This document shows, piece after piece, positions 17,998 through 60,599 of a DNA stretch of 64,000 nucleotides (the stretch's first letter is position 1; each line of letters opens with the position of its first letter). The stretch spans positions 2,854,222-2,918,221 of the forward strand of contig NC_057752.1 in the NCBI RefSeq assembly GCF_004010195.1. The letters are read 5' to 3'. A model generated the notes under the pieces. That model was given only the letters and a program-made list of their open reading frames with translations. It did no database searches and was not told the DNA's origin. The translations under genes and the position numbers were made by a program. The stretch comes from Chiloscyllium plagiosum (Eukaryota).

Positions 17998-18108
<111 letters not shown>

Positions 18109-22708: not shown

Positions 22709-22831
22709 CTTCAGGTCACGGCACTGGGACTGCAACCAGTCATTGATGAAGCCCTGTGGATCTCTGGCAAAACTCAACATGAACTCCCTCTGTGTCTTGA
22801 GCTGGTTAATGGTCTCTATTGTTTCATGGAT
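22709..22831 (-). CDS. SMARCD1: SMARCD1 exon 11 ([41 protein letters not shown])
   Basis: 123 nt, cag| ... |gtatgt. Confidence 0.96.
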
Positions 22832-22899
22832 CTGTGAAAGTAAAGCAGCGGGGTTACACACCTCAAACTCAGAAAGGAGATTGCAGCTGGCTAATGGTC

Positions 22900-23480
22900 A
22901 TTCTTGGTGGTAGAGGCTGCAGGCTTGGAAGATGATGTCACAGGAGCTTTGACAAGCTGCTGCAGGGTCAGTGGGACACTGCTGCTACTGTACATCAACG
23001 ATTAAGAGAGTGAATGTTGAAAGTGGTGGATGTGGTGCCAATCAAGCGGGGGCTGCTTTGTCTTGAATGGTGTCAAGCTTCTCGAGTGTTGTTGGAGCTG
23101 CACCACCAGGTAAGTGGGGAGTATATTCCATCACACTCCTGCCTTGTAGGTGGTAGACAGGCTTTGGGGAGTCAGGTGGTGAGTTACACACTGCAGAATT
23201 CTCAACCTCTGACATGCTCTTCTCGCCATTTATATGGCCAATCCAGTTTAGCTTCTGGTCACTAGCAAACATCAAGTTATTGATGGCAGTGGATTCAGTA
23301 AAAGTAATGCCAATGAGCGTCAAAAGGAGATAGCTAGATTCTCTTTTGTTGGTGATGGTTATTGTCTAGCACTTGTGTGACATGAAAATGACTTGCCATT
23401 TATCAGCCTGAATTCTGTCCATATCGTGCTGCATACAGGCATACACCATTTCAGGAACTGAGCTGTAGTAAACAGTACTG
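22900..23480 (-). mobile_element. Decayed LINE fragment
   Basis: DQKLNW.GHI ... RSVMEY ... APTTLEKLDTIQDKAA RT C-terminal peptide. Confidence 0.7.
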
Positions 23481-23789
23481 AACGCTGTTCAAGCATAAAA
23501 GAGTGTAAAGAAAGAGGAATAGACGAGATGGCCCTTGAGGTTGCCTCAGTATTCAATGCAAACATTTCCACTTTCCTGCCTTGGATGATAACAGATTAGT
23601 GTAGAATAGATGGGCTTCAAATTATTTTCACAGGTCGGCGCAACATCGAGGGCCAAAGGGCCTGTACTGCGCTGCAATGTTCTATGTTCCATCCCATACC
23701 CCTCAATTCGGATACCAAAAATCTGTTCATCATGGCCTTGAATATTTTCAACAATGAAAATATCCACAACTTCTAAAAATCTGTTTGAG

Positions 23790-24600
23790 ACTTTACATGC
23801 ACTCAAATAACCATCCAATGACCTCCATCTCTATTGCACCTCAGTTGAAACATTAATAGAGACCAAAACTGTGCATATAATCGAATTAGGTCTCACCAAA
23901 TTCATGTAAAATTTTCGCAAGACTTCCTTATTCTTGTACTACAGTCCCCTTATACTACAGCCCCTTTGCCATTTCCCTTCCTCATTGCTTGCTTTTCCTG
24001 AACGCTAACTTTGTGCATTTCTTACACCTTAGTCCCTCTGAACATCAAGATTTAAAAGCTTCACGCCTTTTAGAAAATAATATCTCATTACTCTCACAAC
24101 CAAAGCGAGTAAATTCTCACCTTCCTACATTATACTCCATCTGTCATCATCCTGCTCATTCGCTTGACCTGTCTAGCTCTTTGCAGATTACATTTTCCTC
24201 ACAGCTGACATTGCCAGCAAACTTCCATGAAAACACAGTAAATGTTTCTAAGCTATTAACACAGATTAGTAATATCTGAGGTCCCAGCACCAATCCTTGC
24301 CGCACTCGACAATTCAGTCTGCCAACATGAAAGTGACCTATTTATCCCTACTCATTGCTTTCTGCCTGCTAACCAATCCTTACCCATGCTGATATATCAA
24401 CCCAACTCCATGAGTTCATGCCTTACCTTTTGTGTGGCACCTTGTTGAATGCCTTTTGGGAATACAAGTAAACTACATTTGCTGGTTTCCCTGTGTCTAC
24501 CCTACTAGTTTCATTCTCAAAAAACTGACATTTGTAAACATATTCTTGCTTCCATAAAACCATGTCGACTTTGTCTGATCATACTACCACCAGCAGACAT
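23790..24600 (-). mobile_element. Decayed CR1 LINE fragment
   Basis: Antisense CR1 RT-region motifs (gtgtggcaccttgttgaatgccttttgg, ccatgtcgactttg on +). Confidence 0.65.
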
Positions 24601-24813
24601 CCTTGCTTCTGACCTTACGATGGAGGCAAAGCCATTGATGAAGCAGTTGAAGATGAGTGTCTAGGCCATTACCTGAAGAGATTCTCCCCATGCTTGAGCA
24701 AGGAGCCTCAGGTTCAAGTCTCACCTGCTCCAGAGGCACATATTCACATTTCTGAACGGACTGATGAGAAAATATCTACCTGAAGGAAGTTCTGCAGCAA
24801 AGTCCTGGGGCTG

Positions 24814-25116
24814 AGATTAGATTAGATTACCTACAGTGTGGAAACAGGCCCTTTGGCCCAACAAGTCCACACCGACCTCCGAACAGCAACCCACCCAGAC
24901 CCATTCCCCTACATTTACCTCTGCACCGAACACTACGGGCAATTTAGCATGACCAACTCACCTAACCTTTGGACCGTGGGAGGAAACCAGAGCACCCGGA
25001 GGAAACCCATGCAGACATGGGGAGAATGTGCAAATTCCACACAGACAGTTGCCCGAGGCGGGAATTGAACCCGGGTCTCTGGTGCTGAGAGGCAGCAGTA
25101 CTAGCCGCTGAGCCAC
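24814..25116 (-). mobile_element. HE1/V-SINE-like SINE
   Basis: (agatt)n tail on +; B-box ggttcaattcc on minus. Confidence 0.85.
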
Positions 25117-25430
25117 TTTATAATGCTGCTAAATTTGTCAACTATTTGAGCAATGGACTAAGGCGCCCTAAACCTGAGAAAAAAAATCACTGAACAGCTT
25201 TTTAAAAAAGCTTAGTACATTGACGGTAAAATCTATTCTGCACACCAACCTGAGAATAAAAATTCCTTTGAATCTCGAGCTTTGCGTTGTCTAACTAGTT
25301 ACAATCTCTGGTCCTTTCATCATTTAAGACTGCAATAAAAGGTTATCTGACCAGAGGGAGACGCAGTAAAGAGTCTTCACTCTTGGTTTCGGTCAGGCAT
25401 CAATACCAAATTTAAACTAGTGTGAAGTCA

Positions 25431-25613
<183 letters not shown>

Positions 25614-25964
25614 TTAACAGGAATTGGTATGATATTGTAGAATACAATGGCATGCATTAAAGCTGTAGTGATATTAGTTCGCCGATGCATTCGTTTGGCT
25701 CGAATACAGATATCTGCTAAATACAAGCAGGTCACAATGTTGACAATGTGTTATGCAGTTACAGATTACATATCTGCAAAAAGGTTCCTGCTTTTGAACT
25801 TGTGCTTCCGACAATGTCAATATCTCACTGTCAGACTGCATCAGAGAAAGCTAAAACAGTCCAAGGTTAACACCTTGTAAAGCCTTGAACCAGTTAAAAT
25901 ACACTGCAAGTCAACCTGTTCAGTGAAATGAAAACCCAAAGGAATAACGCTCAAATAAATTAGT

Positions 25965-26770
25965 AGAGTCATAGAGATCTACAGTATAGAAAAAGGCCTT
26001 TTGGCCCATTGTGCCCATGCCAGGCCAAAGCAACCACCTAATAATTCTAATCATATTTGCCAGCACTTGGTCCATAGTCTTGTATGCCTTGGCATTGCAA
26101 GTGTATCTGTAAATACTTAAATGCTGTGAGGGGTTCTGCCTCTACAACCCTTAAAGGCAGTGAGTTCCACATTCCCATCACCCTCTGGATAAAAAGGTTT
26201 TTCCTCAAATCTCCCTCTACCCTTTCACCTGTTGCCTTAAATCGATGCCCCCGGTCATTGATCGCTCCATTACGGGAAACCGTTTTTTCTTGTCTACCCT
26301 ATCTATGCCCCTCATCATTTTATACATCTCAATCTGTGTCCTCTCAACCTCCACTGCTTTCAGGAAAACAACCCGTCTGTCCAAACTCTCTTCATAACTG
26401 AAATGCTCCAGCCTAGGCAACATCCTGATAAATCTCATCTGCACCCTCTCCAACACCATCACATCCCTCCCTGTAATGTGGATTCCAGAACTGCACACTT
26501 CAGAACTTAGCCGTGGCCTAATCAATGTTTTATACAGTTCCAGCATAGCCTCCCTGCTCTTAAACTCTATGCTTTGACTAATAAAGGCAAGTATACCATC
26601 AGCCTTCTTAAACATTTTATCCACCTGTCCTAATACTTTAAGGAACCGGTATAGATGCACACCAAGGTCCCCCTGATCCTCAGTGCTTCCTCGGGTCTGA
26701 CTGTTCATCATATATTCCCGTACCTTATTTATCGTGCCCAAGTGCATTACCTCACATTTATTCAGCATAG
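25965..26770 (-). mobile_element. CR1 LINE 3' fragment
   Basis: ORF 26217-26768 KCEVMHLG...MLELYKTLIRP...ERVQMRFIRMLP. Confidence 0.9.
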
Positions 26771-26846
26771 AGTGTGCTTTGAGAAATGTGTCAACAATTG
26801 TCAGAACTTATTATTCAGAAGCTTTGTAATGAATGGACCAAGTTCA

Positions 26847-26954
<108 letters not shown>

Positions 26955-27029
26955 CTACAAAAAGAGAGAAAGCATATTCAATAAAATCAGGGTCCAGCTG
27001 TCATTTAAAAATAAGACCCACATATACCA

Positions 27030-27390
27030 TCGGCTGCCAGGCTCAGTTGGTAACGCATTCATCTCTGAATCACAAGGTTCAAAGTTTAAGCTCTACTTCA
27101 GGGTTTAAGCATAAAACAAAAAGCAAGACTGGCACTCCAGTGCAATTCTGAGGGGATGCTGCACGGTCCGAAGTGTCATCTTTCAGGCATGTCAAACTAA
27201 GGCAGTCCTTTGTCTGCTAGAAGATCCTGGGGAACTATTTCAAAGAGGAAGAGAATTATCCCCAGTGTCCTAGTCAATATTTGTTTCTAAATCTACAAGA
27301 TGATTATCTAGTCTTTATTATGTTGCTGTATATGAGTGCTTGTTGAATGTGAATCAACTCTCGCATTTTATACAAGTGAGTGCACTTTAA
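27030..27390 (+). mobile_element. Ancient Deu-domain SINE
   Basis: tRNA-like head ggctcagttggtaac; actccagtgcaattctgagggg core; ccccagtgtcct motif. Confidence 0.6.
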
Positions 27391-27699
27391 AAAGCAAGGT
27401 CCTTCTTTAAAAAAAACCTATAATTCCTAACAAAACATTAGTAGACAAAGCCTGACACTGTGATGTAGGAACCCAGATGCAGTCAGAAATCTGGGCACCT
27501 TTTGCATGTCCACATCTAAAACAGGACACAGTTTGAGCCCTACCTCAAAAAAAACACTTACTTCAAGTCTTTACACTAGCCCACACAACAGTCTCAGCAT
27601 TCCAAAAATGAATTCGTTATATACAAAGTGGAGATAGTTTTTTTAATTAATGAAAGTAAGTATGCATTTTAATCTTATGGTTCATGAAAGGAAAAGATA

Positions 27700-28830
27700 G
27701 GTGATTTTTGAGAAGATTTGTTTTGTCACCATGCTAGGTAACATCAGTGAGCCTCCATGAAGCACTGGTGTTCTGTCCTGCTTTCTATTTGTGTGTCTTG
27801 GTCTGTTGTGGTGGATGATATCACTTCCAGTTCTTTTTTCTGAGAGGTTGGCAAATGGAGTCCAAATTGATGTATTTATTGATGGAGTTCCATTTTGAAT
27901 GCCAGGCCTTTAGGAATTCCCGTGCATACCTTTGTTTAGCCTGTCCAGGGTGGAGGTATTATCCCAGTCGAACTGGTGTCCCTCTTTGTCTGTATGTAGG
28001 GATACTAGTGATAGTAGGTCATATCTTTTGGTGGCTAGTTTGTGGTCATGTATCCTGGTGGCTAGTTTCCTGCCAGACTCTACCCGATGTAATGTTTGTT
28101 GCAGTCCTTGCAGGGTATTTTGTACATGACATTCATTCTGCTGTTGATTAGTACAGGATCTTTTAGATTCCTCTGGAGCTGTTTCGGTGTGTTGGTAGGT
28201 TTGTGGGCTACCATGATGCCTAGGGGCTGGAGTAGTCCGGTCACCATCTCTGACATGTCTTTAATGTGTCTTTAACATGGCAGGGTGGCTAGAGTCTCTG
28301 GGCGGGTTGTGTCGTCTTGTTTAGGTTTGTTATGTAAGAATCAGTGGACTGTGCTTATCGGGTACTCGTTCTTGAATAAGTTGCACAGGTGTTTTTCTTT
28401 GGCATTTCATAGTTCCTGGGTGCTGCAGTGTGTTGCAGCTCATTTAAATAATGTCCTGATGCAGCTCAGTTTCTGGGTGTTGGAATGATTGCTCCTGTAG
28501 TTGAGTATCTGGTCAGTGTGTGTCACTTTCTTGTAGATGTGGATCTGCAGCTCTCTGTTGGCTTTTCATTCTACTATGGTATCTCGGAAGGGGAGTCTGT
28601 TGTTGTTCTCTTCCTCTTTGGTGAACTTTATACCATTAAGAATGTTGTTTAGGAGTTTCTTCTAATTTGTTGCGTTTCATGATGACAAAGGTGTCATCCA
28701 CATAGCGGACCCATAGCTTGGGAAGGGCTGTTCGTTGCATCCTCTGCATAACTGCTTCTGCTAAGAAGTGGGGAGTGGCCAGAGTACCTGTAAGCATTAC
28801 CAACTGCCCTGTATAAAGGGGATGGGTTTC
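27700..28830 (-). mobile_element. Penelope-like element, RT plus GIY-YIG fragment (decayed)
   Basis: PKLWVRYVDDTFVIMKR RT motif (ORF 28636-28893) and a 3' region homologous to 6792-8223. Confidence 0.85.
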
Positions 28831-31456
28831 CTTTGTTTGGGGGCCTCTTTGACACGACTTTGCATGCCTGCGAAGAGGGTCAAAGGGGGTCACCTAGCTT
28901 GTACAGGCTTTAATAAACTTTACCTGTTTGCAGAAGGTGTGTGTGAATTGCATCTTGTGTGTGAAACCTCAGGAAAAAGAACCTAACACCTGGGCATTGC
29001 AAACATCGTAGCCATGGAAATTTTGCTCCTGGTATCATTGCTGGAAGGACTGGCCATCCTCCCAGCAGACTGATTGGAGTGATATGTTGGCACATTGTCA
29101 GAAACTTGGTGCTTACAATCGAGGTAGATTACTATCTTAGCCATAGTTTAGGTGTCGAGAGCACACAAAATTGCTTGCCTTTAGAATTAAGTATTACTGC
29201 CTGATTGTTTTGCCATGTTCATACTAAGACATTAGGGGAAAATGTTTCAACTATATGCAACAATGTTTTGACAGATTCTTAATTCATGATTCCTGTTGGT
29301 CCCACTGTTCCACCAACAAAAATCTTGCGCTGGTCGAATCTCAAAAAATAGTAATTCAGCCACTTAGCCCTTTACAAAATCTAGGTGGACATAGTCTCAA
29401 CGTCTATCGCCATTATGACACGTCACTAAAGTACTAGTGACAACATGGCTACACAGTCAACCTAATGGATGTGTCCTAAACTGATTTGGGCACTGGTATG
29501 TTCAACATGGAAAGACCTTAGAAAGTACCGTATTAAAATACAGAACCACTTGAAATGTAATAGTCCAGGTTTTTGAAAAATCTTTGGATTTTGCTTTTCA
29601 GTTCATATGTCAGCATGTAATATAGGCATTGTGGAATCTCAGAATTGCTACAGGACAGTAGAGCTCATTTGTGCCCACACCAGCTCTCCAAATGAGAATG
29701 CAACTTCTAATCTGCAGCCCTACATTCATCTAAAATATCCAAGCTCCTCTCGTTTCAGCCTCAGGAGCTTCTCCCATTTTAAACGGTCCACGATTTGTGG
29801 CTGCGCCTTCAGCTGTTTCGGCCCGGAGCTTCAGAATTCACATCTAAACTTTGCCAGCTCAGTTTCCTGTTTTAAGAGGCCTTTGAAAGCCACCAAGCTT
29901 TTGGTCATCAGTCTGAACGTCAATGTTTGCTCTACAACATTGCCGTGAAGCACCGAGGAAGGTTTCACTCAGGTAAGGCGCTGCGGAAATTCAAACTGCT
30001 GCCGTTATCACCGACCCTGGTTATTCTGCACATTGATTCTTGTGGTTTTCTGATATTAATGCAAACAAATAACAAATACACACATCCATTATATAAGCAA
30101 GAAAATGCTTCAGGGTGGTTTATAAATTGGAGTGCCCAGGTATTTTATTCCAAATGAGCAACTTCTCTCAATACATCTAAAAGTAATGGTCATATTTGGA
30201 ACTACCTGTGGTTGAGTACCTTCAAGGGGATTTGTGCATTGATTTGAAGAGGCTCAACCCCATATTACAATGAGAGATTGGTATACTCATTGGAGAATAG
30301 ATCTCTTCCTTAAAGTAGCATTATAGGTATTCAAACTGTCGCCATTTTAGATCTAGACAACTTTAGTAAATAAACCACTGAAGAGGTGGCTGTAGGACAA
30401 TGCACATGCAACAAGCTGCTCTGAAAACCCAGATCCACACTTTGACAGATGTGAAAAAATTTCACCACAGCAACTGTTACAATCCATAACACTCAAAAGA
30501 AATTGTCAATATTCCAAATCAAATTACTCACTTCATTCTTAAAACAATGTCAATTTGCCCCATCTCCTAACTTTAACGGATACTTTCTTAAAAAACAAAT
30601 CCCAGGATCCTTGCCAAAAACTAATTGTTTGGGTCAATCTTTACCTGTGTACCATGTTTCATTAAAAGTCACTCATTAGCTTTTGAGGTACATTGTTTAA
30701 AGATAACAGAGTAACAAACAAGGGCAAAAATATTACCCCATCCACTTTCAAGTGACAGAGATAAATATCAGCAAGCTGTAATGATTAGAGGTTACAATCG
30801 TCCTGATGTTGCAGCGTAGAAAAGCCTGTATTAAAATCAATTTTACATGGCAGCGTTTCATTCAGCAGATAACCTGGTTGAAGTATAGTGTTAATCTACT
30901 GTAACAGCCAATCTCTGCATCTTCTCTTTCAAACATCACCTGAATTTCAGTACAGTTGTGCATGAGAAGAATAGAATCTTACATCCCAATGAATGCTCAA
31001 CAGCAATTCTAAAGGAAATAATTCAAATCCAGTTGGTGAAAACAAACCACTTTTAAATGACCCACTTCCTTCCCACCTTACGTTTGATGCCTGCACGAAC
31101 CTGAGCATGGAGTTAAAACTCAATTTTGATCAACATAAAGTCGCGCGAGACTTGGGAGTTAAACAGTTACATTTGGCCTTTGCAATGGGATAACTAACAA
31201 AGTTATATTTTTACCCCATTTTTTCAAAAGACAATGCATAACTGCAGGCATGTCCAAGTTGTAGCCAGTGGATTAAGAGAACCCCCAACGTTGAACAATC
31301 CAACCTGCGAAAAACCTACAGTATAGCTTCATTTGTGTCTATATTTTAGATTTGCTAGTTTATCTTGCTTCATACTTGTGAAACTGGAGCTTTGCACAAT
31401 TGGGGGATGAACCCAACGCCTACTGCTCAGAGTACGAAGATACATAGGAATATATA

Positions 31457-31791
31457 GGGGCAGCACGGTGGCTCAATGGTTAGCATTGCTGCCTCACAGC
31501 ATGAGGGACCCAGGTTCGATTCCAGCCTTGGTTGACTGTCTGTGTGGAAGTTGAACATTCTCCCAGTGTCTGCGGGGGTTTCTTCCCACAATCCAAAGAT
31601 GTGCAGGTTAGAGTCAACTGGCCATGCTAAATTGCCCCATAATGTTCAGAGATGTGTGGGTTAGGTTCATTAGTCAGGGGTAAATATAGGATAATAGGAT
31701 AGGGGAATGGGTCTGGGTGGTTTACTCTTCGGAGGGTCGGTGTGGACTTGTTGGGCTGATGGGCCTGTTTCCATACTGTAGGGATTCTATG
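31457..31791 (+). mobile_element. HE1/V-SINE-like SINE
   Basis: ggggcagcacggtggctcaatggttagc head; ggttcgattcc B-box. Confidence 0.85.
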
Positions 31792-31952
31792 ATAATGGCA
31801 CACACCAAGCAGCCCACAAAGAGACAAAAACTCTAGACATGTCTGCATTAGCAAATAAAGCTAAAGTGGAGATTGTGTGGGTTAAAAAGCACACATCCTA
31901 CCTGGTTTTTCAATTGCATTAACGTATAGATACAAAGCACAATGATATTTAC

Positions 31953-32114
31953 CTGCTGGAGGTATTTGTCACAGTTGATGAACTCCCGCTCATGGGAATC
32001 CTGCAGCTTGTGTGTTTTAATGTACTGCCAGAGAGCCTGGATGATGACAGGCCGGGTCTGAGTGTGGATGCCCAGCAGACGTGCCAGTCGCGGATCCAAT
32101 TTAAACTGGGGTGG
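31953..32114 (-). CDS. SMARCD1: SMARCD1 exon 8, SWIB domain ([54 protein letters not shown])
   Basis: 162 nt, cag| ... |gtaaat. Confidence 0.97.
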
Positions 32115-32212
32115 CTGCAAGGAAAATACAAACGTATTGGTACACAGACCCAGCAAGGCCACCAACTAAACATTCACCAGGTACTTGATCTAGCCGATGG
32201 CACTTTTGTGTC

Positions 32213-32636
32213 TCAGACTGTTAAGTTTGCTCGCTGAGCTGGAAGGTTTGCTCTCAGACGTTTCAACACCATGCTAGGTAACATCATCATTGAGCCTCCG
32301 TTAAAGCACTGGTGTTCTGTCCCACTTTCTATTGGAGCGTCTTGGCCTGTTGTGGTGGGTAATATCACTTTTGGTTTGATGTGATGTTTGATGGAGTTCC
32401 AGTTTGAATGCTATCAACGAGCATGTCAATTTGGACCCCATTTACCAACCCCTCAGAAAAATGAACCGCAAGTGATATTACCCACCACAACAGGCCAAGA
32501 CACATAAATAGAAAGCGGGACAGTACACCAGTGCTTCAACGGAGGTTCAGACTATGCTACCTAGCATGGTGAACAAACCTTCCAGCTTAGTGAGCAAACT
32601 TACAACCTGAACTACAAACCTTCACAAAAATCGCAA
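32213..32636. mobile_element. Fold-back Penelope-derived element
   Basis: Inverted arms ~32222-32370 and ~32470-32602 (e.g. tcttggcctgttgtggtgggtaatatcactt / aagtgatattacccaccacaacaggccaaga); degenerate TSD acttttgtgtct / acgtttgtgcct. Confidence 0.75.
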
Positions 32637-32699
32637 ACGTTTGTGCCTGCATGCAGGAGAATGTTTGTCGCCATCCTGAGGCTGCACAGAGCTCTGCAG

Positions 32700-34900
32700 A
32701 ACTAGTTTTTACATCGCCCAAGTTGAAAATTCAAAAGCAAACAAACATGGATGTAACAGTATCACAACTGAGTAAAGGTAACTATCAAGACGTGAGGGAG
32801 GAGCTGGCCAGAGTTGATTGGAAGGAGAGCCTAGCAGGGAGGATGGTGGAGCAGAAATGGCAGGAGTTTGAGGGTAATGTGGGAGACCCAGCACAAATCG
32901 ATCCCAAGGAAGTAGAAGCATACTAAGGAGAGGAGGCGGCAACCATGGCTGACAAGAGAAATCAGGGAGAGCATAGAAACAGAAGAACAAGCACACAATG
33001 TGGTGAAGAATAGTGAAAAGCTAGAGGATCGAGAAGCGTTTAAAAACCAGAGGATAACTAGAATAGCAATAAGGGCGGGAAATGGGGCAGAAGATGAAAT
33101 AAAAGAGTGAGCTTGCTAGTAATATAAAAAATTGCAAGAATTATTCTTCATATCTAAAATGTAAGAGAGAAGCAAGACTGGACATTGCTGGAAAATGAGG
33201 TGCAGAAGTAGCAATGGGGAACAAAGAAACTGCAGAGGAACTGAATAGGGACTTTGCATCTGTTTTCACAGTGGAAGTCATCAGCAACATACCACAACTT
33301 CAAGATAGGTGCAAAGGTGAGTGCAGTGGCCATCACTAAGGTGAAGCTGAAAGGTCAAAAGGCAGATAAATCACCAGGACCAGATCACCTATACTCCAGA
33401 GTTCTGAAGGAGATAGCTAAAAGAGATCATAGAGGTATTGGTGACGATTCTTCAGGAATCACTGGAGTCAGGAAGAGTACCTGAGGTCTGGAAAATGGCT
33501 CATATAACATCCCAGGTTAAGAAGACAAGAAGACAGAAGACAGGAAACTGAATTTGAATCATTTATTGTTACGTGTATTTAACATAAAATAGTGAGAAGT
33601 TTCAAACTATAGGCCAGTTAGCCTGAGTTGGCAAGATTTGAGAGTCCATTATTAAGGATGCAGAGTACTTGGAAATGCATGGTAAAATTGACAAATCTGT
33701 TAGAATTCTTTGAGAAGCGAGACAAGGAAAGCCAGTGGATGTGATCTTTTTGGATTTCCAGAAGACTTTTGATAAGCTGCTGCACAGGAGGCCGCTAACT
33801 AAGCTAAGAACCCATGGTGTTAAAGATTCTGGCATGAACAGAAGATTGGCTGACTGGCAGAGAGTAGGGATATAGGGGCCTTTTTCAGGATGGCAGCCGG
33901 TGACTAGCGGAATTCCACAGGGGTCTGTGGTGGTACAACTATTCACGTTTTACGTCAGCCTGGACGATGGAACTGAGGGCATTGTTGCTAGGTTTGCAGA
34001 TGACTCAAAGATAGGTTGAGGAACAGGTAGTGTTGAGGAAATGTGTAGGTTGCAGAAGGACTTGGTCATGGTAGGTAAATGGGCAGAGAAGTAGCAGATG
34101 GAATTCAATGTGGGAAAGTGAGAGAATTTGCACTTTAGTAGGAAAAGAAAGAGACAAACTATTTTTTTAAACGGGGAAAGGCTTTGGAAACATGAAGCAC
34201 AAAAGGACTAGGGAATCCTAGCTCAGGATTCCCTTAAGGTTAGCATGCAGGTTCAGTTGGCAGTTAGGAAGGCAAATGCAATGTCAGCATTCATTTCAGG
34301 AGGGCTAGAATACAAGAGCAGAGATGTACTGCTGAGGCTGTACAAGGTTCCAGTCAGACTGCATTTGGAATACTGAGAGCAGTTTTGGGCCCTATATTTA
34401 AGGATGGATGCACTGGCCTTGGAGGAGCTCCAGGGTTGGTGTACGAGAATGATCTTGGGGATGAAGAGCTTGTCACGTGAGGAGCAGTTGAGGACTCTGG
34501 GTCTGTACTCAATGGAGTGAGGGGTGGGATCTCACAGAAACTTATAGAATACAGAGAGGTCTGGTTAGAGTGGATATGGAGATGGTGCTTCCACGAGTAG
34601 GAGAGACTAGGACCCGAGGGCACAGCCTCGCACAGTGAAGGGAGGACCCTTTAGAACTGGGATGAGGAGGAATTTCTCCAGGCAGAGGAGAATGAATGTG
34701 TGGAACGTGTTGCCACAGTGGGATGTGGAGGCCAAGCCATCGAGTGTATTTAAGACAGAGATAGATAGGCTCCTGACTGCTAAGGGGATTAAGGGTTATG
34801 GGGAGAAGGCAGGAGAAAGGGGTTGAGAAATGTATCAGCCATGATTGAATGGTGAAGCAGACCCGATGGGCTGAACAGCTCAAATCTGCCCCCATGTCTT
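32700..34900 (+). mobile_element. CR1 LINE, long decayed ORF2 fragment to 3' end
   Basis: KADKSPGPD, LDFQKTFDK and FADD motifs, many stops; includes a ~50-bp antisense Rex-like tail insertion at ~33550-33603 flanked by aaact. Confidence 0.9.
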
Positions 34901-35179
34901 ATGATCCAGCATTTGCTGTTTTTGTTTTAACAGATACCCAACATCTGCAGTATTTTGTTTTTGATGCCAGAATTTAAGCCCAGTCACTCACTTAAACAAG
35001 GGGCAGAATTAATGTAGGATTAATTCCATTCCTCTTGACTGCTTACTGCAAGCTGCTCCTATCAGCAAAAGGAAGGATGCAGGAAGTCTGCAAGCAGAAT
35101 TTATGTGCCACTTGCTGATTAACCTGCTTGTTTCTCTCTGCAATAGCGCTTGACGGATTCCTGTCCTTTATTTAGCTTT

Positions 35180-35252
35180 AGGAGAAACGTCGATTCTCCT
35201 GCTCCTTGGATGCTGCCTGACCTGCTGCGCTTTTCCAGCAACAAATTTTCAG
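35180..35252 (+). mobile_element. Penelope-derived terminal fragment
   Basis: Perfect 14-bp TSD ctttatttagcttt at 35166-35179 and 35253-35266. Confidence 0.75.
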
Positions 35253-35400
35253 CTTTATTTAGCTTTCTCAACTTTAAATGATTGGCTGAGAGAAAGGAGC
35301 AGTGATAATGAGCAAGGGAACAGAATTGTGAATTGTGCCCATATGTCAAGGAGGCACATTTGAAAAAAAAGTGTTGATTGTCAACTCAGTCCAATGATAG

Positions 35401-35595
35401 GAGAAAGTGAGGACTGCAGATGCTGGAGATCAGAGTTGCGAGTGCGGTGCTGGAAAAGCAGCATCCGAGGAGCAGGAGAAGCGGTGTTTTGGGCAAGAGC
35501 CCTGAATCGGAAATCATGCTCTTGCCTGAAATGTCGACTCTCCTGCTCCTCAGATGCTGCCTGACCTGCTGTGCTTTTCCAGTACCCCACTCTTG
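35401..35595. mobile_element. Short fold-back Penelope-derived element
   Basis: Perfect 17-bp TSD actcagtccaatgatag at 35384-35400 and 35596-35612. Confidence 0.8.
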
Positions 35596-36099
35596 ACTCA
35601 GTCCAATGATAGACACCCCAAAGTATCCAGGGATTTAGGGTGGTTGAACGTTTAAAAGGGGCAAGATTACAAGTTAGTCTGCTGCTCCCTGACAACTCCC
35701 ACCACAATCAACTAATTGGACCTTTTTGTATGAAGGTGCTTGTTTTTGCTAAAACTGAGTGGCCATTTGTTCGCAATTATTTGACTGCAAACTCTATTAG
35801 GGAGAGGAAGAATCCTGCTTTCCTTTGATATCTGCACCATTCTCAGGAAGCGTCACCGAAGAGCTACGCAGAGAGCTGCAGCTATGGCGACTGTTTCTCT
35901 TGCATGGGAGACGGGCAACCCTCCTGCCACCTCAGCCAAAATCCACAAAACCCAGTACAGACCAGGGCTCAAACCAAGATATTTTATACTCCACATGCAC
36001 CAGCTCCTCAATGTTTTTAATCAACAGAGCCATTGGGTAGCTCAAATGATAATTTTGTTAAAATATTTTGTACGCTTTACTAGCTCGAGCTATGTAATT

Positions 36100-36597
36100 C
36101 CATTATAGAATGTACAGCGCTGAAACAGACCCTTCGGTTGAACTCATCCATGCTGACTAGATATCCTAACCTAATCAAGGCCCATTTCCCAGCACTTGGC
36201 CCATATCCCTCTAAACCCTTCCTATTCATATACCCATCCAGATGCCTTTTAAACGCTGTAATAGTATCAGCCTCCACTACTTCCTCTGGCAACTCATTCC
36301 ATACACGCACCACCCTCTGCGTGAAAAAGTTGACCCTTGGGTCTCTTTTATATCCTTCCCCTCTCCACCCTAAACCTATGCCCTCTAGTTCTGGGCTCCC
36401 CCACCCCAGGGCAAAGACCTTGTCTGGTTACCCTATCCATGCCCCTCATGATTTTATAAACCTCTGTAAGGTCACCCGTCAGCCTCTGATGCTCCAGGGA
36501 AAACAGTCCCAGCCTATTCAGCCTCTCTCTATAGCTCAAACCCTCCAACCCTGGCAACATCCTTGTAAATCTTTTCTGAACCCTTTCAAGTTTTATA
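36100..36597 (-). mobile_element. CR1 LINE 3' end
   Basis: MLPGLEGLSYRERLNRLGLFSLE and VRVWNELPEEVVEA peptides. Confidence 0.9.
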
Positions 36598-36676
36598 GTT
36601 TACTTGTAAATTTATTACGGTCTAGAACTAATAAATGCTTTTTAATTCATCTCAATCTCAAAATGAATTTGCTTAC

Positions 36677-36778
36677 CTGGTAATCTAGCATCAGTAACAC
36701 AGTGCAGCGCACATTCACATCTCCTGGTCTTTTCACCTGGAAGCCATCAGTCTCTTGGGTTGTGGCCGTCCTGTGCCA
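36677..36778 (-). CDS. SMARCD1: SMARCD1 exon 7 ([34 protein letters not shown])
   Basis: 102 nt, cag| ... |gtaagc. Confidence 0.97.
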
Positions 36779-36924
36779 CTGAATGGAGTTAATGAAAAAC
36801 AGTTACCACTTTGTATAACTAAGAGAGAGACATTCCTTCAGCCACTGTATCAACAGGATTCTTCAGAGGTCTATCAGGCATGCATCATGCTGCTATTCAG
36901 GGCACTGTCACTACATAATATCCT

Positions 36925-37226
36925 ACACAGAGACACACACGAGAATTTCTAGAAGCATGGCATTCCAACTGGAACTCTATCAACAAACACATCGAGTTAG
37001 ACCCCATCTACCACCCCCTGAGAAAAAGAACAGGAAGTGACTTCACCAACCCAAAGAAACCCAAACATATAAATAGAAAGCAGGAATTTTCAGCAGTGCT
37101 CTGCCTGAGGCCCACCGAAGATGTTACCGTGTATGGTGATGAAACATCTGGAAATGAAGCTTGCAGCTCAGTGAGCAAACCTACATCCAAAACCTCAACC
37201 TGAGCTACAAACCTTCTCAAAACGTG
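36925..37226 (+). mobile_element. Penelope-like element 3' fragment
   Basis: REFLEAWHSN-like end; perfect 14-bp TSD ctacataatatcct at 36911-36924 and 37227-37240. Confidence 0.8.
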
Positions 37227-37611
37227 CTACATAATATCCTGTCTAACTAAGAATATGCTCCACCACCAGTCTGCTTGCAGTGTTTGTGCAATTAGTTCCC
37301 CCTCTAATGACTCAAGGACCTTTCACTCCCTGAGCAATATTTAGTCCCACTGCTAACCCAGAGGGGAAGACAATTGTTGGTACACCAGCCAACCAGAAAG
37401 CCTTTACTGGCATCCAACAGGCCTCATGCAGCATCTCTCGCAGGGAAAGGAACAAGTTACAGGATCCACACAAGCCCTTGCCATGACATATGTTATAGGG
37501 ACACATGAGGAAAGAAGAGATCCAAACTGATGTGACCTCTAGGAAGTTGCTATTTTTACTGCAGATAGAAAACACTTCAAATTTCAGCATGAAGGAGGAA
37601 GTAAGATGTCA

Positions 37612-37776
<165 letters not shown>

Positions 37777-38235
37777 CTACAAAGGCAAAAAAAAATCCAT
37801 CAACAATTCAATACAGAACAGATGATTAAGGGAAATTGAAAATATCAACACCCTTGCAGAGCTGCGCCATTTTTTGAACACGACCCTTCATTCTCTCCTC
37901 CACAACAGCGCTCTCACTGTCTGCTACATGCCCCTTGTAGTCGCATGTAAAGAGAGGTAATCGCAATTCAATTGACACTTAACCCTCTATCTTCCTCCTC
38001 TACACTCCCCCACTGTGCCTGGATTCTGTGCAGGGGCTTTGCACAACAGGTCAAGCTGCAATCAAAGTTCAACAGAACCAGGGCCCAAAACTTCAAGCAG
38101 TTCAAAGCAAACTCTTGGCAACAGCAGTAAAAGCAATAGTGAGCTTGGCTAGGATATCAGGGAGAAATTATGGAAAGGCTTAACATGAAAGCATCTCTGG
38201 TAAAAAGGGGGCGAAAGGTAAATCTAAAACCTTAC

Positions 38236-38358
38236 ATCCTCGAGAAGCCTGCCTTCCACCCGAAGCTCCCAGGATGCCACAGTTCCTTCGCCATCTTCTG
38301 CATCTGGTTTGGCAGGGTTGAATGTATTAGAAATAAATATACGAAGCTTTCGCTTTTG
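38236..38358 (-). CDS. SMARCD1: SMARCD1 exon 5 ([41 protein letters not shown])
   Basis: 123 nt, cag| ... |gtaagg. Confidence 0.97.
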
Positions 38359-39039
38359 CTGGAAAGAAATAAGAGGAGTTTCAGGAATCAAGTTTTTTTT
38401 TCTCCTCCGTTACGCAGAAATATCACTGTACAGAAGGGGCTCGAAATCAGGTGACTGAGGAATCCAACCAGATAGTTTAATTTTGCCTTGCGAAGAATGC
38501 ATTTTCTTGCAGTATCTGCATTGCTTTCAAACATAGTGCATTTGAATTACTCTTTTGTCTGGTGAAATTTTGAATTCCTGCCCTCGAGAGGGAACAATTC
38601 CATTGATGTCGGCAATTGTACTACACCTCACGCAAGTGTTTATTCTCAATAAGCAAGTCTGGGTGGCAAGTGTTGGTGTCATGCTAAACTGCCAAAAAGT
38701 CCCAAGCCTCGCCACAGTTAACATTCCAGCATGCATCATGTCAGCCGTTTCATTTCTTTTTGCCTCTTTTGAATCGCACAGAAATCAATCTGAACTCTGG
38801 AGATCAGTTAACATAGCAAGGAACATAGACATAGGCCATTCTGTCCCTACCTCGATGCCCCTGCTGAAAAAAAATCTAGGAATCTGTTTTTAAAAATTAT
38901 TATGCCAGCCTTAAGAGCTTTTTGCAGTCATAATGTTCCACACTTACGATCTAGAGCCTTGTTGGGCTGCAATGATCCAGCATCAGACTCTCCAACACAT
39001 TCATTCACAAGTCAGAGGAACAGTTAATATTTCACATAT

Positions 39040-39678
39040 GTCAGAGTTGTGGGTATGTCCACCAAACTGGGAAGTTGACTTGCAGACATTTTGTTCCCAG
39101 TCTTCAGTGCTTTGGAGCCTCCTGTGAAGTTCTGCTGTATTGTCTTTTCTGGAGTTTATTTGGTTCCATTTCTGCTGCTTCCGGTTGTTCATTGTCGTGA
39201 CCGGTATATTGGGTCTACTCCATGTGCTTGTTGTGCGTAGGTGCATGCCATGCCTCTGGAAATTCTCTGGCTGTCTTCTGTTTAGCTTGTCCTACGATCG
39301 TTGTGTCGAATTTGTGGTCCTTGTCATCTGTGTGCATGGCTACTAGGGACAGCTGGTTGTGGTGTTTGTTCATGGATGCAGTTTGCTAGTTGTCTGCCTG
39401 TTTTGTCCTATATAGTGCTACAGTGACCCCATCAACAAGCACGTAGACCTAGACCCATTAGACCAGCCACAACAACAAACAACCGGAAGCAGCGGGAAAG
39501 GAACCAAATAAATTTCAGAAGAGACAATATAGCAGCACTTCACAGGAGGCTTCAAAGCACTGAAGATGTCACCCAGACAGGGGACGAAACATCTGCAAAT
39601 CAACTTCCCAGCTCGGCAAACCCACCCACAACTATGACAACCGGTGCCCGAGCTACAAATCTTAATACAAACTTTGAA
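39040..39678. mobile_element. Fold-back Penelope-like element
   Basis: Inverted arms; CTGAAGA-T-GTCACC-cagaca-GGGGAC-GAAA-CATC at 39560-39593. Confidence 0.75.
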
Positions 39679-39753
39679 TTCCAACTGTGTCAACAATATT
39701 GGGGTCTCTTACAAAGCAATAGAGCAGAGTGTGAAAACCTCTGCTGTTAATTT

Positions 39754-40072
39754 GGGCGGCACGGTGGCACAGTGGTTAGCACTGCTGCCTCACAGCACCA
39801 GAGACCCAGGTTCAATTCCCGCCTCGGGCAACTGTCTGTGTGGAGTTTGCACATTCTCCCAGTGTCTGTGTGGGTTTCGTCCGGGTCCTCCGGTTTCCTC
39901 CCACAGTCCAAAAATGTGCCGATTAGGTGAATTGGCTATGCTAAATTGCCCGTAGTGTTAGGTGAAGGGGTAAATGTAGGGGAATGGGTCTGGGTCGGTT
40001 GCTCTTAGAAGGGTCAGTGAGGACTTATTGGGCTGAAGGGCCTGTTTCCACACTGTAAGTAATTTAATCTAA
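39754..40072 (+). mobile_element. HE1/V-SINE-like SINE (full length)
   Basis: A- and B-box head, core and tail all present. Confidence 0.9.
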
Positions 40073-41409
40073 TTTTCTATTTTGGCTTTTAGGAGGAGAT
40101 GAAATGTATCAATTGTCCACTTCAAGCTGTCCTATCTGGTGAAGATGGATAAAGTACTGCAGAATTTACATCTAGGGCATAAATCTAGCGGTACGCTAAT
40201 GTAGGTTGACCAATTTGTGACTGGCATGCAAATGTTGCCCCAATGTCAAGCAACATCAAAGTCAAGGAACTGTGGCACAACGGACCTTTGAAGGACAGAG
40301 ACTCTGGCATAGCTGGCAAAGCCAGCATTTGCTACTGATCCCCAAGTGCCCTTGGACTGAGTAGCTTGGTGAGCAATTTCAGAGGGCAGATAAGAGTCAA
40401 GCACGTTGCTGTGGGTCTGGAGTCACATGGAGATTAGACCAGGCAAGGATGCCAGATTTTTTTTCCTAAAGGACATTAACAAAGAGCTTGTTTTTAAACA
40501 AAAATTCCCAATAGCTTCATGGGCACCAAAAATCATACAAACTTTTCAGTCCAGATCTTAAAAACTTTAATGCAAATCTCACGAGCTACCACGGTGGGAT
40601 TTGAACCCAGCTCCCCATGGTTTTGGTCTGGACCACTGGGTCACAAGCCCAGTGGGATTGCCACTGCACCACTATGTTTTATAGAAAGCTAGCATATCCA
40701 TGTTTCATTCCACCTTCCATTGCTTGGCCTGGAGCTGTGGAAGCTTTAGCACTTCAAATGTGTCGTTTTTAACAGGATGGGAGCTTCTACCTCTCACACA
40801 CTTTTAAACACGAGTCCAAGACCCCTATCAAGCTCTGGTTAAAATATTACTCAACCCCCTTCTAAAACATATACAAATTACCTTACATCTAATATCGCGA
40901 TGTTACTCACTCACTCACCCCCCCCCCCCACACCGAAAGGCAAAACAGCCACTTGGCGCACATACTATTTCGGCCCCTCAGTTTGATACATCTTAGTTAA
41001 ATTTCCACAAAGCCTCACTTTATTTCAAGGAAATAAATTTTCTCATTGCTAAATGTCACCGATTCTGGGAACATCCTCCTAAACCTCCTCTGTACCCTCT
41101 CTAGTGCAATTCATCCTTCATGTAATGCATCAACCAGGTCTGTGCATAATTCTCAGCTGGCGATCGACCACAACCCCGTGCTCATTCTCTTGGCCTCAGT
41201 ATCCGACATGTCTTCTTGACAACATTAGTGACCTGTCCTACCACCCTCACTCTGAAGAGTTTCAAGAACTCTCATTCCATTCACAAACGGTTTAGCACCA
41301 GCTCTCGACATTTGTTTGGAGGTGATAGCCTGATTTCTGAAAGGTCAGGTTTTAGTGGGGCAAAGTACAGATAGGTAACAAAAAACAGAAGTAGTCCAAC
41401 ATGTTTTAC

Positions 41410-41532
41410 CTTTATTGGTCTTTTCAGTGCTTCCTGGATGTCCAGGCGCTTCCTCATTATAGTCTGGTCCAACTTCCTCTCAAACGCCAGCAAATCCATG
41501 TAGGCTTGAGACTCTGGCACAAGTTCCCGAAT
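41410..41532 (-). CDS. SMARCD1: SMARCD1 exon 4 ([41 protein letters not shown])
   Basis: 123 nt, tag| ... |gtaaaa. Confidence 0.97.
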
Positions 41533-42214
41533 CTATAACGAAATGCATATCGTACCACAATACTCATCATGATGATCACCAAAACTGCTGCTTTTAAAGG
41601 CACAAACATCCTTGTTGACGATGCCTTTCACATGCCTGCAGCTTTTGACATGGTCGACCACACGCACCTCTTGCCTAGTATCACTCTTATCTGCTCGGGT
41701 GTAGTCACAGAATCTCCTGCAGTGAGGAAAAGGACCCTGCTGATACACAGCTCTACCCACCCACTGCCCATTGTTGCTCTGAGTACAAACTGCTTGCCCA
41801 ACATCCAGTTTTTCATGAATCACAATTTCCTCCAGTTAAATAGTTGGAATGATCAAAGGATTGCCTGCATCAGAGTGGCCGATTCCATTCCGTTCTCCTC
41901 AGCATCTGTTGCAAGCGGAACCGGAATGCTCTGATTCGGATTTGAACCCAGATTCCAGTGGGTGCAGGTGCCTGGGCACATCAATCCTGAACCAAAAGGT
42001 TGTGTTGCCCTAGGCCTGAGGGGTCACTTCATACATGGTAATTAGACAAAGATTTGCAAACGGTTCACCTAGCTTGCCTTCAGTTACGATATCCCCCCCC
42101 AAAAAAATCATTTTTCTGAAAAGAAAAGTTCAAAATATTTGGATTACCTGCCTTGGCTAAAAAGCAGGGTGTAGGAAAATCTTTAACTACAAAAAAATTA
42201 AGGATGCACTTTAC

Positions 42215-42257
42215 CCTCTGAGGTAGAATTTTATCAGCCATCTTCTTCTTCTTTGCA
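42215..42257 (-). CDS. SMARCD1: SMARCD1 exon 3 (N-AKKKKMADKILPQR)
   Basis: 43 nt, phase 2 to 0, tag| ... |gtaaag. Confidence 0.96.
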
Positions 42258-44125: not shown

Positions 44126-44129
44126 TGGT

Positions 44130-47483: not shown

Positions 47484-47677
47484 TTGTGATTGCGGTTTTG
47501 GGCTGCTTGCTGCTGCACTTGTTGAATTTGCTGAGGTGCTGGCCGTTTGCGAGACTGGTCCATCATTGACTGAGGCATTCCTGGTCGCACAGCTGGGCTC
47601 CCCCCATACGAAGGACCAGGCGGACCCATAGAAGCACCCTGAGGTGGCATGCGGCTGCCTGGAGGCATCCCTGGGCG
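47484..47677 (-). CDS. SMARCD1: SMARCD1 exon 2 ([64 protein letters not shown])
   Basis: 194 nt, phase 0 to 2, tag| ... |gtaggt. Confidence 0.95.
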
Positions 47678-47968
47678 CTAGTCAAAAAGAAGAAAACAAA
47701 ATAAGACATCGGAAAGATTGCGACCTTGTCACGAGGGGCTGGATTCAGCAAACAAACACCTTAGATGACACAGGCAATACAACTTCAGCATTCATCCAGT
47801 GCAGCCTAGCACATCCCTCAACAAACAAAAATCCATGGCACGATGGAAAGGCAGCAGCAAGGTCAGTTTCCAGGACACAAGATCTGTCATTTTAGCATCA
47901 AACCTAAAATTGTTAGCAACATAGTCTTGTGCGCTAAACTAGAGGCACCCAAACGTTTTCCTCGTGTG

Positions 47969-48146
47969 ACCCCAAAGATATGCGGGTCAGGTGAATTGGC
48001 CATGCTAAATTGCCCATAGTGTTTGGTTAAAGGGGTAAATGTAGGGGTATGGGTGGGTTGCGCTTTGGCGGGTCGGTGTGGACTTGTTGGGCCGAAGGGC
48101 CTGTTTCCACACTGTAAGTAATCTAATCTAATCTAATCTAATCTAA
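47969..48146 (+). mobile_element. 5'-truncated HE1-like SINE
   Basis: Core/tail with (AATCT)n. Confidence 0.8.
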
Positions 48147-48305
48147 ACTGCGTGCGGCCCCAGAGAAAAATCTTGTGGGGAGGGGGGGGTAGACAGGTCG
48201 AGTGCTGCTGAACCAAAGCTTTAGAGGTCCTCGGGGGTGGGGACCTTCAGTTCTTCAGTGAGATGGGGCTTCAATTCTCCACTGTGGAGGAGTGGCTAGG
48301 GAAGG

Positions 48306-48769
48306 AAGAGGGAGAGCAGGAGTTGGGTTTCGGGGAGGCGTGGAGAAGGCAGGGTTTCTACAAAAAAAAAAGCCTCAATTTTTGGCAGCAACAGCAGCAA
48401 TCGGATCACAGAGAGCAGCCCTTTAGGTTACGCCCACCGATAGACAAAAAAAACCCCAAAGGTTTAAGGGGAGATCGCAGCTGCCAAAAATCAGTCAAAG
48501 CTGTGAAATTGCTATCGCTGCCTCAGAGCTCAAGTCCAAAGAGGGAGAGCAGGAGTTGGGTTTTGGGGAGGCGTGGAGAAGGCAGGGTTTCTACAAAAAA
48601 AAGCCTCAATTTTTGGCAGCAACAGCAGCAATCGGGTCACAGAGAGCAGCCCTTTAGGTTACACCCACCGATAGACAAAAAAAACCCCAAAGGTTTAAGG
48701 GGAGATCGCAGCTGCCAAAAATCAGTCAAAGCTGTGAAATTGCTATCGCTGCCTCAGAGCTCAAGTCCA
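48306..48769. repeat. Tandem duplication, 233 + 231 bp
   Basis: Copies 48306-48538 and 48539-48769 differ by 3 substitutions and an A10/A8 run. Confidence 0.95.
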
Positions 48770-49571
48770 TGCTGGGCTTGGGAAGTCCCGCAAGAAATGA
48801 TCAATGGGAAAGATTCAATAGACCTGGTGATTGCTATAAAGGGGAATGACAAATTACAGAGAATAAGATGCCCGATCAAACTTGTACTTCAGTTGACAGG
48901 TTAAAGACCTATTTTTAGAAAAGATGGCAGACGGGAGTGGGGTGAATATGTTGGCCAGAGACCACAATATAGTCAATATTCCATGCCAAGGTGCAGTACA
49001 ACGGGGGTGGGGGTGATGGTTGGGAGGGGAGGGGGGGGAGGGAGGGTGCTTTCATACAGTTACATTTAAAAATCTGCAAATTTACTGACAAGTTTCATCT
49101 GAATTGTATTCCGTTACAAGGACACAAAAGAGACAGGTCAGCAATTCTGCTTCATTCTCTCCACAGCAGACAGCTACAATAGGAAAATCCCGTTTGTAGG
49201 GCAGCGGGGGAGCGGTGAAAGAGGGCAAATTGGGAGGTTGGGGGTGGGGGACCTTAACAAAAACGGCCACTGGAAATGAGTCGCACGGGGGAAAGAAAAA
49301 AATAATTGCTGGACAATTTAAGCCACTATGCCAGTACAGGCATGTATCTTATTAATCCAATTGTTCAGTCTGCTGCACAGAAGACTGCAATTGATTCTGC
49401 AGTCAATGCATCAACCTGGGAAACAACACAGCCCTTTCCTCCTTTAGGGCCGGAGTCAGTTGATGGGATAACCTTCTACACCCAAAATTCTGCATTACAA
49501 TTGATAATAACCTGCCACCGCAGTTGGAATTAAAAAGCCTCGTTAGTTTTTTAAAAAAAACAAACCCTTAC

Positions 49572-49622
49572 CAAACCGTGAGCAAGAAATTCAAAGAGTT
49601 TACTCCTGGTTGCTGACTGCAT
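49572..49622 (-). CDS. SMARCD1: Candidate alternative first coding exon (MQSATRSKLFEFLAHGL), SMARCD3-type N-terminus
   Basis: ggcATG start with an upstream in-frame stop; strong phase-0 donor TTG|gtaagg matching the phase-0 exon 2 acceptor; similar to recalled human SMARCD3 ATKSKLFEFLVHGV|RPG. Confidence 0.8.
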
Positions 49623-49724
49623 GCCACGCTTCCCTTTCAAACACCCTTTGTCCGTGAGCCACGCTCCACTTTACTGCACCCTCGTTTAGCAAGCTGGTGC
49701 TGTCGCTCTCGGGCATCCGACATT

Positions 49725-49920
49725 TTATTGTGGGGAAGAAGCAGTCGCCTCAACTTTATAAGAAATCCAGCAAATCAAAAAGCAAACTATCGGAGCAAGT
49801 GACATTTCAGGAGACGCCGTCATATTGTTCAGTCCAAGGCCCTACAATGTGCATTCTAAACACCACAAAGAAATGAATCAATGAAAGACCTTGTACCAGC
49901 AGTTGTCACGTCACTTGTGC
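49725..49920 (-). promoter_or_regulatory. Putative TATA promoter of the alternative first exon
   Basis: TATAAAG at 49754-49760, ~29 nt upstream of a pyrimidine-CA start candidate (~49731); CRE-like TGACGTGA at ~49906-49913. Confidence 0.5.
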
Positions 49921-60470: not shown

Positions 60471-60599
60471 CTACTTCAACCTCAGTACATCACCCAGCCA
60501 AGCACCTGCCCCAGTTTGGCTGCTACCACATGCCTTAGTCATGCCTTTGTTACCTCTCGACCCTCGACACCCAAGCAGCTGTCCATTTTCCACCCTCCA

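Follow-up and report, generated by a model that had tools for sequence, protein, structure and literature searches.

BAF60 subunits form the link between SWI/SNF remodellers and transcription factors, and tissue specificity is generally attributed to the different BAF60 paralogs and isoforms. The SMARCD1 (BAF60a) locus of the shark Chiloscyllium plagiosum raises the question of whether this gene has a second coding start that resembles the first exon of its paralog SMARCD3 (BAF60c) and, if so, how old such a start might be. The window analyzed here is a stretch of 64,000 nucleotides (contig C43:2854222-2918221), and positions given below are those of the window. The evidence assembled in the following makes it quite probable that a short segment in the first intron, which we call exon 1b, is a genuine conserved alternative first coding exon of SMARCD1, and that SMARCD1 is a two-start gene whose exon 1b already existed before the paralogs separated.

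Read directly from the minus strand, exon 1b runs from an ATG at 49622-49620 to a TTG at 49574-49572 and encodes the peptide MQSATRSKLFEFLAHGL. Its letters, ggc ATG CAG TCA GCA ACC AGG AGT AAA CTC TTT GAA TTT CTT GCT CAC GGT TTG followed by gtaagg, are exactly those that the original prediction had given for this segment. An in-frame TAA lies 17 codons upstream in the translation of 49934-49560, so that the 1b ATG is the first possible start within that frame; with an initiator Met and a frame closed upstream, the segment is built as a first coding exon would be. Exon 2 starts at 47677 (CGC CCA GGG ATG CCT...), where it is preceded by a pyrimidine-rich tract and tag, and the junction between the two exons is in phase 0 on either side. 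By a scripted choice of GT-AG boundaries against shark SMARCD1 proteins, we obtained a gene model in which 1b is followed by 12 downstream exons, giving 13 exons with 1428 nt and 475 aa and no internal stop (Table 1). A short upstream ORF in the presumed 1b leader is in a different frame, and its stop lies 15 nt before the 1b ATG. The same presumed leader contains a TATAAAG at 49760-49754, as seen in the sequence alone.

Table 1. Features of the SMARCD1 gene in the window, with strand and the basis of each assignment
Feature	Position	Strand	Basis and remarks
Probable 5' leader of exon 1b	49617..49916	- (taken from the gene; contigs strandless)	Low-depth RNA contigs in 3/4 runs
Upstream ORF in the presumed 1b leader	49637..49723	-	28 codons + stop; sequence only
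Exon 1b, coding part	49572..49622	-	ATG + 16 codons, 51 bases, phase-0 end; direct reading and homology
Exon 1b splice donor (gtaagg)	49566..49571	-	Direct sequence reading; candidate in RNA terms
Intron between exons 1b and 2 (1894 nt)	47678..49571	-	Tandem repeat (231 bp x2) and abundant interspersed repeat inside
Exon 2, common acceptor of 1a and 1b	47484..47677	-	Ends in NRNH; sequence and homology; RNA contigs in 4/4 runs cover 47484-47678
Exons 3-13	16630..42257	-	GT-AG model; stop included in the last exon
Exons 3-6	42257-42215, 41532-41410, 38358-38236, 37776-37660	-	GT-AG model
Exons 7-9	36778-36677, 32114-31953 (SWIB), 26954-26857	-	GT-AG model
Exons 10-13	25605-25470, 22831-22709, 18108-18007, 16683-16630	-	GT-AG model

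That the gene is SMARCD1, as had been proposed, is borne out by several lines of evidence. Behind the first exon, the window model is identical at 450/458 positions to a composite of the shark SMARCD1 models P0004 and P0003, and the exon at 32114-31953 is the SWIB/MDM2 domain (PF02201; 73.5 bits against a cut-off of 25). In a maximum-likelihood tree of 20 rows, the SMARCD2+SMARCD3 clade (100/99) leaves out the window model; the rows nearest to the latter are SMARCD1, with up to 96% identity (to P0331), and the base of SMARCD1 in this tree is without resolution. SMARCD2 and SMARCD3 have loci of their own in this genome, on contig C33 and on the small contig C87106, respectively. In human, GPD1 lies downstream of SMARCD1. 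The further statement that the shark gene lies next to GPD1 was not borne out within the window, where none of the 124 open frames of at least 52 aa in 1-16600 matches the glycerol-3-phosphate dehydrogenase family. An exon of the C-terminal domain of that family (PF07479), on the same strand of the contig as SMARCD1, lies 17.5 kb outside the window, past its start, and belongs to one of three such loci in the genome.

The intron between 1b and exon 2 holds a tandem duplication at 48306-48769 (231-bp unit, 2.0 copies, 97% matches), which creates a probably meaningless 230-aa stop-free frame on the plus strand (48212-48904). It also holds an interspersed repeat at ~47972-48100, over which the summed depth of RNA contigs reaches ~2e4 to 2e5 in the four runs described below, with many loose ends and joints; this repeat resembles a transcribed, SINE-like element of very high abundance, and an Rfam search of 47650-50000 gave no match. 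Open frames in the SMARCD1 introns and upstream, at 59938-60489 (-), 36348-36599 (-), 46376-46693 (+), and 53305-53596 (+), share one peptide type (...RVQRRFTRM.PG...LSY.ERL..LGL.SLE.RR.RGDLIE.YK) and look like the tails of one retroposon family. A 155-aa open frame at 7040-7504 (-) matches GIY-YIG weakly (20 bits against a cut-off of 22.6 bits; E 8.7e-4) and is possibly a remnant of a Penelope-like element.

The canonical exon 1a lies at C43:2918923-2919087 on the minus strand (64702-64866 in window-equivalent coordinates), which is 0.7 kb past the window end; the 1b ATG lies ~15.1 kb downstream of it. The exon codes for MAARGFQTMSPG...PGQGYP, a MAARGFQ-type start, and has a phase-0 end with a GTAAGT donor. 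Both first exons are present in this genome, and they have an identical phase-0 junction to exon 2. However, the N-terminus from exon 1a is 55 residues long, rich in Pro, Gly, and Ala, and without similarity to 1b, and its promoter is CpG rich. Exon 1a falls in the sole CpG-rich 500-bp windows of its locus (GC 0.56-0.58, CpG o/e 0.57-0.81); the 500-bp window with 1b has a GC of 0.44 and a CpG o/e of 0.64, the highest CpG o/e of the 68 windows in 30001-64000. In the arrangement that we propose, two promoters would feed one acceptor, that of exon 2: a main CpG-rich promoter at exon 1a, upstream and just outside the window, and a weaker internal start region in intron 1, immediately upstream of 1b. 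Use of the latter would replace the long Pro/Gly/Ala-rich N-terminus by a 17-residue peptide and give a 475-aa BAF60a isoform; we infer that 1b has a promoter of its own.

We evaluated the expression of the locus with contigs from four runs (X1-X4, with three organism labels) mapped to 42100-51000. These runs are not recorded as RNA; each of the four has a long contig, of 1378-4407 nt, that matches exon 2 to its exact limits and joins 47484 to 42257 across a minus-strand GT..AG intron, and this joint between exons 2 and 3 identifies the runs as spliced RNA assemblies. The main contigs over exon 2 carry 30, 115, 135, and 156 further 5' letters that fall off the mapped stretch 42100-51000. A joint from 49572 to 47677 was found nowhere among the best 15 of 218 joints listed, and the best 24 of 1396 loose ends listed include neither 47678 nor 49572. 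At the depth of the main contigs, a 49572 joint would rank with that between exons 2 and 3, and the main transcripts thus start elsewhere. Their first exon is presumably 1a; with 1a feeding the main transcripts in the four runs, 1b would be a minor alternative. The claimed splice of 1b to exon 2 stands as far as the phase-0 frame and the 475-aa model are concerned, but found no counterpart among those best 15 joints.

There is, nonetheless, transcription over the presumed 1b leader in three of the four runs, as seen in low-depth contigs of X1 (49644-49831, depth 5.9), X2 (49696-49916, depth 2.6), and X3 (49617-49793, depth 2.5), which come from two organism labels. X4, whose organism label is that of the best DNA-matching runs, has no coverage over 1b. 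The region 49560-49920 (361 bp) is single copy in the assembly, and the neighbouring unique intron bins in 48337-49524 have a depth of 0 in the four runs. Since the leader contigs stop short of the donor, with ends at 49644, 49696, and 49617, one might see in 1b a relic that looks conserved but has dropped out of splicing in this shark, and in the 49617-49916 contigs unrelated promoter-proximal, enhancer, or pre-mRNA transcripts. Their shallowness (2.5-5.9), their lack in one of the four runs, and the missing 1b-exon 2 joint would all agree with this. Against it stand the intact ATG, frame, and donor, together with an identity of 13-15/17 to the ray-finned exons across the jawed-vertebrate divergence, which argue for purifying selection on the coding sequence. 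Further, the depth of 0 in the other unique intron bins indicates that pre-mRNA background is negligible. We consider a relic unlikely and infer that the shark does splice 1b to exon 2.

Alternatively, the segment might be not a first exon but an internal cassette exon between 1a and exon 2, which would use the cag acceptor at 49619-49617 and insert the 15 residues SATRSKLFEFLAHGL. Such a reading is invited by the pufferfish Tetraodon nigroviridis, in which the model P0304 (CAG11780.1) reads ...GPGYP-SDTRSRLFEFLAHGL-RPGM, that is, 1a followed by a Met-less 1b and exon 2. In the shark, too, an AG is situated right behind the ATG, and the 45 nt that follow would preserve the frame. Pyrimidines, however, make up only 5 of the 20 positions before that AG, as against the strong tract before exon 2, and the Met position, which an internal exon does not need, is kept in six of the seven SMARCD1 sequences with the exon. 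Moreover, the homologous exon of SMARCD3 is a first exon, and the main contigs of all four runs have no piece on 1b. Inclusion as a cassette is, to our mind, slightly less probable still than decay of the exon. The Tetraodon model itself could be an artefact of an old prediction or reflect a use of 1b as a cassette in pufferfish.

The age of exon 1b was approached by a formal alignment of 18 SMARCD1-1b and SMARCD3 proteins, in all of which the exon directly adjoins the RPGM of exon 2 and in which T5, S7, L9, F10, E11, F12, L13, H15, and G16 are invariant. With these nine residues and the same RPGM junction, the match to the first exon of SMARCD3 on which the original prediction was founded is upheld: shark 1b has the BAF60c2-type core T-[KR]-S-[KR]-L-F-E-F-L-x-H-G-x at the RPGM junction and a phase-0 donor. 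The resemblance is graded. The exons of six ray-finned fish SMARCD1 models are identical to shark 1b at 13-15 of 17 positions, and those of 13 SMARCD3 proteins at 11/17 in each case; over the 13 core residues, the corresponding figures are 11-12/13 for fish SMARCD1 and 10/13 for SMARCD3. The SMARCD1 exons follow the consensus MxSxTRS[KR]LFEFLAHG[LW], with the start Met at the same position in 6/7 sequences, and the SMARCD3 exons have the longer consensus M..EE..GGAR[KR]ATKSKLFEFLVHGV. Shark and ray-finned fish SMARCD1 share R6, A14, and L17, for which SMARCD3 has K, V, and V; conversely, neither the acidic/Gly extension specific to SMARCD3 (M..EE..GGARKA) nor V14/V17 is found in the shark and fish SMARCD1 exons.

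These differences bear on whether the shark exon was recently copied from SMARCD3 by gene conversion or exon transfer, in which case it would be uninformative on the ancestor. The 10/13 core identity could be taken that way, but R6, A14, L17, and the short MxSx start are common to ray-finned SMARCD1, the shark exon lacks the SMARCD3 extension, and the assembly contains no second copy of the motif (the SMARCD3 locus being fragmented here), all of which leaves a copy very improbable. The MxSxTRS start, A14, and L17 instead indicate that the shark exon is a paralog, and no copy, of the SMARCD3 exon. Judged by these residues, shark 1b is the ortholog of the ray-finned fish SMARCD1 exon and the paralog of the SMARCD3 first exon, and this combination places the exon before the separation of SMARCD1 and SMARCD3. 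All three paralogs are present in cartilaginous as well as bony fishes, so that, given the established vertebrate phylogeny, this separation precedes the split of the two lineages. The proposal that the exon is older than the BAF60a/c split is thus supported, and on firmer ground than when it was made, by the orthologous exon of ray-finned fish SMARCD1 and its R6, A14, and L17. In sum, exon 1b looks real and ancient: a conserved alternative first exon, of minor use, that was there before SMARCD1 and SMARCD3 split.

In a tblastn search with the fish SMARCD1 isoform P0084, the first 17 residues align with 49622-49572 (E 0.001, within the window), and a degenerate DNA pattern for [KR]LFEFLxHG has a single match in the 3.56-Gb assembly, which is exon 1b. 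A reversed-pattern control has one match in the 3.56-Gb assembly as well, so that about one chance match per genome is expected. Even so, that the sole match should fall into the first intron (~17 kb) of SMARCD1 and on its coding strand, with an ATG and an in-frame GT donor, is not reasonably chance (we estimate ~1e-6). The idea of a chance open frame with an accidental similarity, to which the length of only 17 codons and the single match of the reversed pattern might lend some color, is practically refuted by the coincidence of position, strand, frame, ATG, and donor with exact identity to annotated proteins.

We then considered the distribution of the exon among annotated proteins. When exon 2 was used as the seed of a search for longer proteins, 116 of 179 candidates matched significantly, and four of these proteins have the motif at their N-terminus: P0001, P0059, and P0084, which are SMARCD1, and P0050, which is SMARCD3. 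P0001 is the protein GCB81764.1 of the catshark Scyliorhinus torazame, with 17/17 residues identical to exon 1b, followed by exon 2; P0059 (A0A3Q2P3F1, Fundulus heteroclitus) and P0084 (XP_031670648.1) have exon 1b too. In the shark SMARCD1 proteins P0002 and P0003 from this search, exon 2 is identical, yet the start is the canonical MMAARGFQ... one. Since 90% clusters may conceal isoforms, we opened ten large SMARCD1 clusters and listed their members, of which 125 were new; four of the 125 have the exon, namely, P0299 (XP_077458593.1), P0320 (XP_034021931.1), P0331 (XP_066564407.1), and the Tetraodon protein P0304. Two salmonid SMARCD1 models, P0084 (XP_031670648.1) and P0090 (XP_031669944.1; Oncorhynchus kisutch in UniRef), show about nine tandem copies of a 13-residue stretch inside the SWIB region, which are probably an assembly or annotation artefact.

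The class of each collected protein was set by its exon 2 signature under a rule of our own, and the counts describe a sample of annotated proteins, not genome searches. With this proviso, among sequences that have an N-terminus, the motif stands upstream of exon 2 in 7 of the 118 shark/fish-type SMARCD1 ones (P0001, P0059, P0084, P0299, P0304, P0320, and P0331), in none of the 63 tetrapod-type ones, and in none of 7 SMARCD2 sequences; the paralogous motif is present in 13/19 SMARCD3 sequences. The remark that no such isoform is known from mammalian SMARCD1 is consistent with the tetrapod figure. That the exon survives in shark SMARCD1 is likewise true as to its presence, but sharks are not alone in having it, as the ray-finned fish models show. 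Other searches added only SMARCD3-type cases: 7 in the best 150 of 568 matches of a representative search, and 4 among the 95 new proteins of a near-length search, which brought up no Logan (transcript-derived) protein of a shark that has exon 1b. A search with the first 40 residues of P0001 yielded 2 matches among 3 candidates, both to exon 2 only, and says nothing on the spread of the exon. The motif is absent from the three full-length invertebrate proteins inspected (P0177, P0195, and P0205), a sample too thin for dating the exon before vertebrates.

Within the shark genome, tblastn with SMARCD3 and SMARCD1 queries found no 1b-like exon in the 10 kb upstream of SMARCD2 exon 2 at E values up to 1. 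The KLFEFLVHG first exon of SMARCD3 has no pattern match in this assembly, where the SMARCD3 locus is split over the small contigs C87106 and C89180. With the locus on such contigs, the missing exon shows nothing about the start of the shark's own SMARCD3.

As to what the peptide might do, an AlphaFold2 model on the 18-row alignment places residues 8-15 (KLFEFLAH) in a helix with disorder on either side, at modest confidence (block pLDDT of 58 and 70, mean 62.6). KLFEFLAH would accordingly form a short amphipathic helix, and its hydrophobic face of L9, F10, F12, and L13 suggests a short docking helix, a motif by which the 1b N-terminus may dock a partner protein. The 1b segment is in none of the solved structures matched: all five PDB sequence matches begin at exon 2 or later. 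The start type of the BAF/PBAF structures concerned is that of exon 1a. According to the review PMC13300182, no paralog other than SMARCD1 enters ncBAF. If the docking role were true, fishes and sharks would have a BAF60a with a BAF60c-like docking helix, combining in one gene partner specificities that are split over two genes in mammals.

More tentatively, the KLFEFLxHG helix could represent an ancestral second N-terminus of vertebrate BAF60 with its own promoter. In that case SMARCD3 would have kept it in all jawed vertebrates, and SMARCD1 in cartilaginous and ray-finned fishes, with losses from SMARCD2 and from the SMARCD1 of tetrapods; we hold this fuller scenario with far less assurance than the exon itself. 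The second BAF60a N-terminus conserved in sharks and ray-finned fishes places the design with two starts, as known from SMARCD3, before the origin of the paralogs, and it suggests that one of the starts may have disappeared from SMARCD1 in tetrapods. The point is one of evolution and annotation, which leaves the general picture unchanged and holds no surprise for the specialist; it should be of use in the annotation of fish and shark genomes and in zebrafish or catshark studies of BAF60a.

Among known systems, the closest in sequence is the catshark protein GCB81764.1, to which tblastn pieces are 100% identical over 1b (17/17), exon 2 from RPGM, and exon 4. It differs in being a partial model of 137 aa on a 19.5-kb contig, named 'hypothetical protein scyTo_0021882' and without a link to an isoform or to SMARCD3. 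The ray-finned fish SMARCD1 models XP_031670648.1, XP_034021931.1, XP_077458593.1, XP_066564407.1, and A0A3Q2P3F1 have a 17-aa first exon with Met in the same place, the core TRSRLFEFLAHG[LW], an identical RPGM junction, and canonical MAAR... isoforms alongside; these predicted models are unlike the shark in having R for K at residue 8 and 2-4 differences per 17 residues. The catshark and fish proteins with the exon are computational gene models. In the SMARCD3/BAF60c2-type first exon, the core TKSKLFEFLVHGV stands directly before RPGM, with 10/13 core residues identical to 1b; it is unlike 1b in belonging to a different gene, in its 9-residue longer acidic/Gly start, and in V/V for A/L. BAF60c1 and BAF60c2 reportedly differ by their first exon, a difference said to have been described by Debril and coworkers in 2004. 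A KLFEFL start is commonly annotated in SMARCD3 (13/19 in our sample) and minor in SMARCD1.

The naming of the BAF60c isoforms as BAF60c1 and BAF60c2 appears in the review PMC2929611, and the human SMARCD3 peptide KLFEFLVHGV is among the neoantigens of Table 1 in PMC10386133. In the non-subscription full texts searched, we found no discussion of an alternative first exon of SMARCD1, and the KLFEFL motif occurred only in tables of SMARCD3 neoantigens; a 2026 SMARCD1 review (PMC13300182) has 0 occurrences of 'first exon'. The exon itself is already public, in catshark GCB81764.1 and several RefSeq/Ensembl fish models, where it stands uncommented. What is added here is modest: its apparent absence from annotated tetrapod SMARCD1 and SMARCD2, its coexistence with exon 1a, its orthology between shark and ray-finned fishes, and its paralogy to the first exon of SMARCD3.
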